Below, one piece after another: positions 11,124 to 31,185 of a DNA stretch of 64,000 bases. This DNA comes from Escherichia coli. GTDB taxonomy: Bacteria > Pseudomonadota > Gammaproteobacteria > Enterobacterales > Enterobacteriaceae. A program made the position numbers and the translations under genes. Position 1 is the stretch's first letter. Each line of letters starts with the position of its first letter. Below the pieces are notes generated by a model that ran no database searches, was not told the origin of the DNA, and saw only the letters and a list, made by a program, of their open reading frames with translations. The stretch lies in the NCBI RefSeq assembly GCF_003334385.1, contig NZ_QOWN01000019.1. The stretch is one strand, 5' to 3'.

Positions 11124-11152
11124 TAAAAAAATCCCCGCCAAATGGCAGGGAT
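11124..11152 (-). terminator. Rho-independent terminator of cspA
   Basis: On the minus strand ATCCCTGCC-ATTT-GGCGGGGAT followed by TTTTTTT. Confidence 0.85.
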
Positions 11153-11179
11153 CTTAGATTCTGTGCTTTTAAGCAGAGA

Positions 11180-11392
11180 TTACAGGCTGGTTACGTTACC
11201 AGCTGCCGGGCCTTTAGCGCCGCTTTCGATGGTGAAGGACACTTTCTGACCTTCGTCCAGAGATTTGTAACCATCGTTCTGGATAGCAGAGAAGTGTACG
11301 AACACATCTTTAGAGCCATCGTCAGGAGTGATGAAGCCGAAGCCTTTGTCAGCGTTGAACCATTTTACGATACCAGTCATTTTACCGGACAT
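11180..11392 (-). CDS. cspA: Major cold shock protein CspA (70 aa)
   Basis: [21 protein letters not shown]... with RNP1/RNP2 cold-shock domain motifs. Confidence 0.97.
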
Positions 11393-11610
11393 AGTGTATT
11401 ACCTTTAATAATTAAGTGTGCCTTTCGGCGATATGGCGTGCTTTACAGATTTTGAAGCGTTAAAGGAATGTGCACTACGAGGGGTATCAACGATAACTCT
11501 TGAAGGGACTTGCCTTACTACACTGCTTTAATGGTCTGTACGTCAAACCGTTGATGTGCATTAAGCCACGCATTGGCGGGTGATGCAACAATTATTTTTC
11601 ATATTTATGA
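11393..11610 (-). promoter_or_regulatory. cspA promoter, AT-rich UP region and ~159-nt 5' UTR with cold-box
   Basis: On the minus strand -35 TTGCAT (11583-11588), 17-bp spacer, -10 CTTAAT (11560-11565); cold-box TGACGTACAGA (~11535-11545). Confidence 0.75.
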
Positions 11611-11672
11611 TTAATCGGTTGGAAAACGGTCCTGTCATCAGGACCGTAAACAGCAATAAAGTGGATAAAAGT

Positions 11673-11963
11673 CTATTCCATCAACTGCTTACTTAATGCC
11701 GGGTTGGCTTGAATCAAACGCATCAATTTTAGTTCGGCACTTGAAGGCTTCACGCGTCTGGATTCCCATTCCTTTACCATGGCGACTGATACGCCCAAAA
11801 CCCGGGCGAAATCATCGATTTTTAATCCTGTCCCTTTTCGTAACTGCTCAATTTCGGTACAGGACGTTGTTCTGTGCGTCAGGGTAATTTTCTGCGTTTC
11901 ATCTTTAAAAACAATCTGTTCCAGGCTGCTCAACAGCTCATGCATTGGATCTTTATATTCCAT
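11673..11963 (-). CDS. yiaG: XRE-family helix-turn-helix transcriptional regulator (96 aa)
   Basis: Track ORF with HTH motif; start codon complement at 11961-11963. Confidence 0.85.
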   Translation of the reverse strand: MEYKDPMHELLSSLEQIVFKDETQKITLTHRTTSCTEIEQLRKGTGLKIDDFARVLGVSVAMVKEWESRRVKPSSAELKLMRLIQANPALSKQLME

Positions 11964-22748: not shown

Positions 22749-22825
<77 letters not shown>

Positions 22826-22915: not shown

Positions 22916-23002
22916 GTAGGCCTGATAAGACGCGTCAGCGTCGCATCAGGCAAATGTGCCGGCCATTGTCGGATGCGGCGCGACCGCCTTATTCGACCTA
23001 CA
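22916..23002. repeat. REP (repetitive extragenic palindromic) elements
   Basis: GTAGGCCTGATAAGACGCGTCAGCGTCGCATCAGGC and a degenerate GCCGG..GGATGCGGCG..CCTAC unit. Confidence 0.75.
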
Positions 23003-25212: not shown

Positions 25213-25310
25213 GCCTGATGCGCTCCTCTTATCAGGCCTACGAAAATTCTGCAATGTATTGAATTTGCACGATTTTGTAGGCCGGATAAGGCGTTAACGC
25301 CGCATCCGGC
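25213..25310. repeat. BIME: two inverted REP elements between dppA and dppB
   Basis: GCCTGATGCGCTCCTCTTATCAGGCCTAC and GTAGGCCGGATAAGGCGTTAACGCCGCATCCGGC. Confidence 0.85.
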
Positions 25311-31070: not shown

Positions 31071-31136
31071 GAGAAAACCCCCGCACGTTGCAGGTATGCA
31101 CCTGACAACACCACGGGGGCTAATCTTGACTCTAGA
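31071..31136 (-). ncRNA. rdlD: Rdl antisense sRNA (antitoxin of LdrD), overlapping the ldrD leader
   Basis: Minus strand reads GTCTAGAGTCAAGATTAGCCCCCGTGGTGTTGTCAGGTGCATACCTGCAACGTGCGGGGGTTTTCTCTC, ending in a GC-stem plus U-run; boundaries approximate. Confidence 0.6.
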
Positions 31137-31185
31137 CCACTCAAGAATAGCCGCGAAACGTTGTCATTACAACACAGGCGGCTAT

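Follow-up and report, generated by a model that had tools for sequence, protein, structure and literature searches.

The question raised by this locus is whether the minus-strand DNA at 11393-11610 is the ordinary control region of cspA or a non-canonical copy in which the nearby hokA and IS150 alter the leader or the promoter. Throughout the text, the window means the whole stretch of 64,000 nucleotides of Escherichia coli DNA that was analysed (contig NZ_QOWN01000019.1). The analysis confirmed that 11393-11610 is the ordinary promoter and long 5' UTR of E. coli cspA, and according to the coordinates of the motifs on the minus strand the interval consists of exactly the cspA leader, the core promoter and the A+T-rich block upstream of it. 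The whole canonical account of the region, that is, a sigma-70 promoter with an UP element, a 428-nt mRNA and mainly post-transcriptional control, is in our view very nearly certain.

In an Rfam scan of the whole window, RF01766 (cspA thermoregulator) was aligned without indels over model positions 1-428 of 428 at 11552-11125 on the minus strand. The match is full length with neither end missing, and its score of 500.8 bits (E = 3e-141) can be compared with the gathering score of 78 bits. The 601 bases from 11100 to 11700 were 100% identical to E. coli K-12 MG1655, and because of this identity and the E value the feature is far beyond what chance would produce. The same segment was found in 5423 of the 5426 complete E. 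coli genomes, in 4845 of them at an identity of at least 99%. The window runs collinear with positions 3718500-3723500 of NC_000913.3, which annotates the gene as b3556 cspA. Only two differences from MG1655 were seen in these 5 kb, one synonymous SNP within hokA and the loss of 12 bp from insK, both of them outside the cspA feature; from the yiaG stop to the cspA terminator the sequence is the same as in MG1655. The surroundings of the RF01766 match are likewise those of the orthologous locus, with a 70-aa CspA ORF, yiaG upstream, and ysaE, hokA and glyS downstream. Compared with E. coli K-12 cspA (b3556) and RF01766, the promoter, the leader, the mRNA and the flanking genes are the same here, with no difference inside the feature. 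The initial annotation had proposed a comparison with the canonical cspA 5' UTR, and this comparison bore it out, as the leader was 100% identical to that of MG1655 b3556, gap-free against RF01766 and showed no divergence. The coordinates of the features are collected in Table 1.

Table 1. Features of the cspA locus and its neighbours in window coordinates.
Feature	Position	Strand	Basis
Hairpin ACGGTCCTG-ATGA-CAGGACCGT, then TTTTCC	11621..11647	-	read from sequence
A+T-rich block (UP element region) TCATAAATATGAAAAATAATTG	11589..11610	-	sequence composition
UP-region core AAAAATAA, -47 to -40	11599-11592	-	read from sequence
-35 hexamer TTGCAT	11583..11588	-	read from sequence
Extended -10: TG 11568-11567, G, CTTAAT 11565-11560	11560..11568	-	read from sequence
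cspA 5' untranslated leader	11393..11552	-	RF01766 position 1 = 11552
Cold-box hairpin GGTTTG-ACGTA-CAGACC, mRNA nt 4-20	11533..11549	-	Rfam helix 1
Cold box TGACGTACAGA, mRNA nt 8-18	11545-11535	-	exact 11-mer match
GCC/GGC hairpin GCCGAAAGGCACA, mRNA nt 124-136	11417..11429	-	read from sequence; Rfam helix 11
Shine-Dalgarno (SD) AAGG, 9 nt before AUG	11402..11405	-	read from sequence
cspA CDS, 70 aa + stop, ATG at 11392	11180..11392	-	ORF; b3556 in NC_000913.3
cspA 3' UTR and intrinsic terminator (hairpin 11155-11128, then T-run)	11125..11179	-	terminator scan; RF01766 end
hokA ORF, 50 aa, intact	10841..10993	+	ORF list
IS150, end 585 bp from cspA leader	9378-10808		

Other Rfam matches in the window, each above its gathering score, were rdlD antitoxin RNA (31072-31137, minus strand, 87 bits), naRNA4 (22919-22998, minus strand, 69 bits), ES036 sRNA (25234-25276, minus strand, 56.7 bits) and a tRNA (22749-22822, plus strand, 60.7 bits).

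A simple sigma-70 consensus scan did not call the cspA promoter, which fell below the threshold because the -35 hexamer agrees with TTGACA at only 3/6 positions and the -10 hexamer has a T at position 2 (CTTAAT agrees with its consensus at 4/6; the spacer is 17 nt). The missed call is not evidence against the promoter, since its key bases are invariant across genera. An alignment of 46 Enterobacteriaceae sequences, which represent at least 11 genera, showed no variation in TTGC of the -35 element or in the TG and TTAAT bases of the extended -10, while in the core of the UP region A38 and A40 were invariant and A36 was conserved in at least 90% of the sequences. The block at 11610-11589 is 86% A+T, compared with 49% in the whole window, and the cspA promoter has a TGn motif as well as this A+T-rich DNA upstream of the -35 element. 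Read from the sequence, this would be a sigma-70 promoter in which the weak TTGCAT/CTTAAT hexamers may be offset by the TGn extended -10 and the A+T-rich UP element. The title of Mitta, Fang and Inouye 1997, as it is cited in PMC6386945, states that an UP element is required for the cspA promoter. CspA amounts to as much as 50 uM at 37 C during early growth (PMC9947658), and going by the literature the cspA promoter would support high transcription at every temperature. The initial annotation had called the promoter strong. The elements that it listed are present, but strength is not readable from weak hexamers, and support for the word therefore comes from the TGn motif, the UP element and published work.

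Upstream of the A+T-rich block, the yiaG stop (11673) is followed by the hairpin at 11621..11647, which is likely to be the terminator of yiaG, and would thereby form the upstream boundary of the cspA control region. The terminator scan did not call this hairpin because its T tail has only 4 T.

As position 1 of RF01766 falls at 11552, the leader is 160 nt long, matching the 160 nt given in PMC6386945. The often-quoted 159 nt is obtained when transcription starts at the next A, 11551, so that the leader of about 159 nt that had been placed on the minus strand from the letters holds with either +1 A. The promoter elements, the A+T-rich upstream block and the cold box were also all found where they had been placed on that strand. 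The cold-box sequence UGACGUACAGA was present as an exact match near the 5' end of the leader of about 160 nt; for a search that allows at most one mismatch, the chance expectation is 0.47 per window. The cold-box hairpin, helix 1 of the Rfam structure, is 98.6% paired across the 46 sequences, though it is nearly invariant. In the literature from the Inouye laboratory, the cold box has a role in the shut-off of cspA expression. Helix 11 was paired in 100% of the 46 sequences, and this hairpin (11417..11429) we take to be the 'upstream box' of cspA-type leaders. The AAAGGTA around the Shine-Dalgarno sequence was invariant in the same alignment.

The loci behind this comparison were collected from one genome per species, and only the first 35 bases of the CDS were used as the query. 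The leader and the promoter thus played no part in the choice of the loci. The 49 loci came from Escherichia, Salmonella, Citrobacter, Klebsiella, Raoultella and Kluyvera, and in addition from Enterobacter, Pseudocitrobacter, Superficieibacter, Intestinirhabdus and Trabulsiella; the alignment holds the 46 sequences, from at least 11 Enterobacteriaceae genera. Across the genera the leader was 65-100% identical to the window, whereas the DNA upstream of -59 was only 3-86% identical, and 44% of the leader columns were invariant. The most conserved blocks of the leader were the cold-box hairpin, AAAUCUGUAA (nt 101-110), the GCCGAAAGGC hairpin and the SD block, of which the cold-box hairpin and the SD block were invariant in the 46 sequences. 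Full-length RF01766 matches with 352-445 bits were obtained in 8/8 genera tested, and yiaG was directly upstream of cspA in at least 34/49 related loci. Within the species, the most divergent E. coli genome found (CUPF09) was 95.7% identical over the query, and its leader differs by two substitutions, one deleted nucleotide and one inserted nucleotide. The 11 substitutions that seemed to cluster at nt 83-99 of the CUPF09 leader were discarded as an alignment artefact of that deletion and insertion.

A cold box with one mismatch (TGACGCACAGA) lies inside yiaG at 11881-11871 on the minus strand, 326 bp upstream of the real cold box. This variant is what Pseudocitrobacter cspA has as its actual cold box. 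The copy in yiaG was rejected as a functional element, being present in only 3/6 loci of the Escherichia lineage and in no other genus, and it is probably there by chance.

The structure of the mRNA is not confined to the leader. The early codons at 11380-11366 (the 'downstream box' region) and nt 192-229 participate in it, and in the RF01766 structure leader nt 26-70 are paired with nt 192-229. The third codon positions of cspA were 79-99% identical to the window across genera and 54% of them were invariant, which fits strong codon bias, a constraint from mRNA structure, or both.

The full mRNA was folded with ViennaRNA (MFE and partition function) at 10-42 C, and no opening of the SD in the cold was seen; the unpaired probability of the SD was 0.19-0.25 at all temperatures. 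The pairing between leader and CDS was kept at 10-42 C in the 428-nt RNA, and fragments of 160 and 187 nt were self-folded. Equilibrium folding is unable to decide on the switch because the published switch is kinetic, and the absence of an equilibrium switch in these models appears to agree with the kinetically trapped cold form that has been published. When the Rfam structure was laid on the 46-sequence alignment, 90.7% of the cells were paired, compared with 33-49% when the partners were slid. Pairs changed on both sides numbered 7/124, a value that 120/500 shuffles also reach, and most of the pairs are invariant; with the leader alone, RNAalifold gave 1-3 compensatory pairs. Covariation favours no particular structure, because the sequences are too conserved.

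In the RNAalifold predictions for the leader alone, the 160-nt RNA adopted a long-range pairing and the 187-nt RNA a local hairpin. One could imagine that cold-box nt 13-18 (ACAGAC) take part either in the local hairpin of nt 4-20 or in a pairing with AUCUGU at nt 103-108, and that these mutually exclusive helices form the core of the folding decision. ACAGAC at nt 13-18 and AUCUGU at nt 103-108 are both invariant across genera. We consider the idea, which comes from the folding models, decidedly doubtful; if it were true, and absent from the original probing paper, it would be a small refinement of the thermosensor model.

The thermosensor mechanism of cspA is literature-based for exactly this sequence, and our own folding and covariation results neither add to it nor contradict it. 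The published cspA transcript is 428 nt (PMC9947658), the same as the model length of RF01766, and the gene would be expressed from a monocistronic mRNA of 428 nt with a leader of 159/160 nt, with regulation that, in published work, appears to be mostly post-transcriptional. The mRNA has a cold form and a 37 C form, the SD being exposed in the cold form (PMC9947658). The UTR and the CDS associate with each other at 37 C (PMC6386945), and the transcript would then be in a closed form, with its leader paired with the coding region, that would be degraded in seconds, a process in which RNase E takes part. In the cold, by the same sources, the mRNA retains the fold of transcriptional intermediates and its initiation region is more accessible (PMC6386945; PMC9947658). 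According to the published work, the message would there be stabilised about 100-fold and would keep the intermediate fold acquired during transcription, in which the self-folded leader leaves the SD exposed and 30S binding would be better. Fragments of the cspA RNA below about 190 nt do not differ in structure between 10, 20 and 37 C (PMC6386945). CspA itself binds the cspA leader (PMC6386945; PMC9947658), and, according to the published work, the protein also aids the progress of ribosomes on the closed form.

Heat-sensing RNA thermometers such as ROSE, fourU and the prfA 5' UTR are like cspA in that the structure of the mRNA sets the access to the ribosome-binding site by temperature. They act by reversible melting on warming, as an equilibrium zipper. 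Unlike them, cspA mRNA is reported to be translated more readily in the cold, owing to a folding pathway that is fixed during transcription (PMC6386945). That no equilibrium switch was found in the modelled cspA folds seems to agree with this difference from the zipper thermometers.

A competing view is that the leader is mainly an element of mRNA stability, a target of RNase E at 37 C that is protected in the cold, with thermosensing by refolding in a minor role. The half-life of cspA mRNA rises from 12 s to 20 min upon cold shock (PMC9947658, citing Goldenberg 1996 and Fang 1997), which points in this direction. RNase E cuts the cspA mRNA just upstream of the terminator; when the enzyme is inactivated the mRNA accumulates, and when the first 71 nt are deleted the cleavage in vitro is slower (PMC2948425). 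Equilibrium folds in which the SD does not open with temperature are also in line with it. However, 30S subunits bind the cold form about 2.5-fold better, and this form is also better translated in purified systems, in which decay plays no part (PMC9947658). In addition, translation at 15 C requires the 5' UTR and the first 9 codons, and these also confer it on a heterologous mRNA (PMC6386945). We consider it somewhat unlikely that stability is the main function of the leader. The stability and the translational mechanisms are both established and they are compatible, and the matter is one of weighting within known biology. The canonical account, with control that is mainly post-transcriptional, includes both.

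Another possibility is that hokA/sokA or IS150 alters the cspA leader or promoter through read-through, antisense transcription or an outward promoter of the IS element, which would make this a non-canonical copy. The initial annotation had found the region worth attention since it lies only about 390 bp from a hokA remnant and the IS150 end. For hokA this distance is close to the actual one, as 399 bp separate its stop (10993) from the 3' end of the leader, but it does not hold for the IS150 end (see Table 1). Nor is hokA a remnant: its ORF is intact, and the parts broken by IS150 are mokA, which the element interrupts, and sokA, which it separates, with the Rfam sok match (9299-9438) on the other side of IS150. 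In favour of an influence it can be said that hokA and cspA are convergent, with the end of hokA 131 bp past that of the cspA transcript, that IS150 ends at 10808, and that the two differences between the window and MG1655 fall in hokA and insK. On the other hand, hokA and IS150 both lie downstream of the cspA terminator (11155-11128), so that the whole CDS and the terminator part them from the leader and the promoter, and the stretch from the yiaG stop to that terminator is the one that is identical to MG1655.

The arrangement is also recurrent. In about 15/49 loci, which belong to Escherichia, Pseudocitrobacter, Kluyvera, Klebsiella and Citrobacter sedlakii, a convergent hok homologue was found between cspA and glyS; its distance from the cspA ATG was 0.4-2.7 kb. 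The same IS150-hokA junction occurs in 1651/5426 complete E. coli genomes, among them the K-12 strains that served to define the regulation of cspA. A functional link of hokA or IS150 to cspA was rejected on the geometry and on this recurrence in other genomes, and we regard it as very unlikely. The proximity reflects a gene neighbourhood that recurs, and an effect of it on the leader is not plausible; the closeness of hokA and IS150 is thus no reason for interest in the region.

Several observations were made on the neighbours themselves. The single SNP in hokA is at 10948, where the codon GAG of MG1655 is GAA, and window positions 10600-11010 had no 100% match among the complete E. coli genomes in the collection, the best being 99.8%. 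In insK, at about 9719, the 12-bp deletion relative to the IS150 of MG1655 is in frame, changes FKKLNPHEHP to FNHEHP and removes an AAGCTT site; this variant is rare, being found at an identity of at least 99% in 13/3395 matching records (best SCU-104, 100%). In strain S13 (L004, 2462-3602) the IS150 by hokA is reversed and starts about 20 bp further away, which suggests an independent insertion or an inversion of IS150. Pseudocitrobacter faecalis (L015, 949-2006) has three tandem hok/sok loci between cspA and glyS, with sok Rfam matches of 111-114 bits and HokA homologues that are 72-74% identical, and Klebsiella oxytoca (L041, 660-811) has one hok locus in the same place; a hok locus beside cspA is therefore found outside Escherichia as well. 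E. coli CUPF09 (L003, 2074-2756) carries a 372-bp gene annotated yidD between cspA and hokA, and in this strain hokA is frameshifted and IS150 is absent. Just 3' of the cspA terminator lies ysaE (10970-11041, minus strand; b4793 in NC_000913.3), which encodes 23 aa (MRNAVSKAGIISRRRLLLFQFAG) and, on the strand opposite to hokA, overlaps that gene's 3' end.

That the leader belongs to a paralogue of the cspB, cspG or cspI type, which also have a cold box and a long 5' UTR, is hardly conceivable even though PGAP names the gene at 11180-11392 'cspE' in most E. coli genomes: the reading was ruled out by identity and synteny, as the region is 100% identical to b3556 with yiaG, ysaE, hokA, IS150 and glyS in the order of NC_000913.3, the product is the 70-aa CspA, and the 'cspE' label sits on WP_000014594.1, a protein called CspA elsewhere. 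The leaders of cspB, cspG and cspI have a long 5' UTR with a cold box near the 5' end and a conserved block before the SD, and these genes are cold-induced by post-transcriptional means. They are other loci with other sequences, and none of them is within the window.

The RefSeq PGAP label in most complete E. coli genomes reads 'cspE: transcription antiterminator/RNA stability regulator CspE', and WP_000014594.1 is the same protein under 'cspE' and, in newer records, under 'cspA: RNA chaperone/antiterminator CspA'. The label 'cspE' on b3556 cspA is a naming artefact, and could mislead automated readers.

The cspA control region described here is already known, and there is nothing unusual in this copy. 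The value of the finding is in correct annotation, in that the window carries an intact wild-type control region, and it brings no new biology. The region so annotated is an element of the cold-inducible vectors of the pCold type and a paradigm of cold-responsive mRNA folding.
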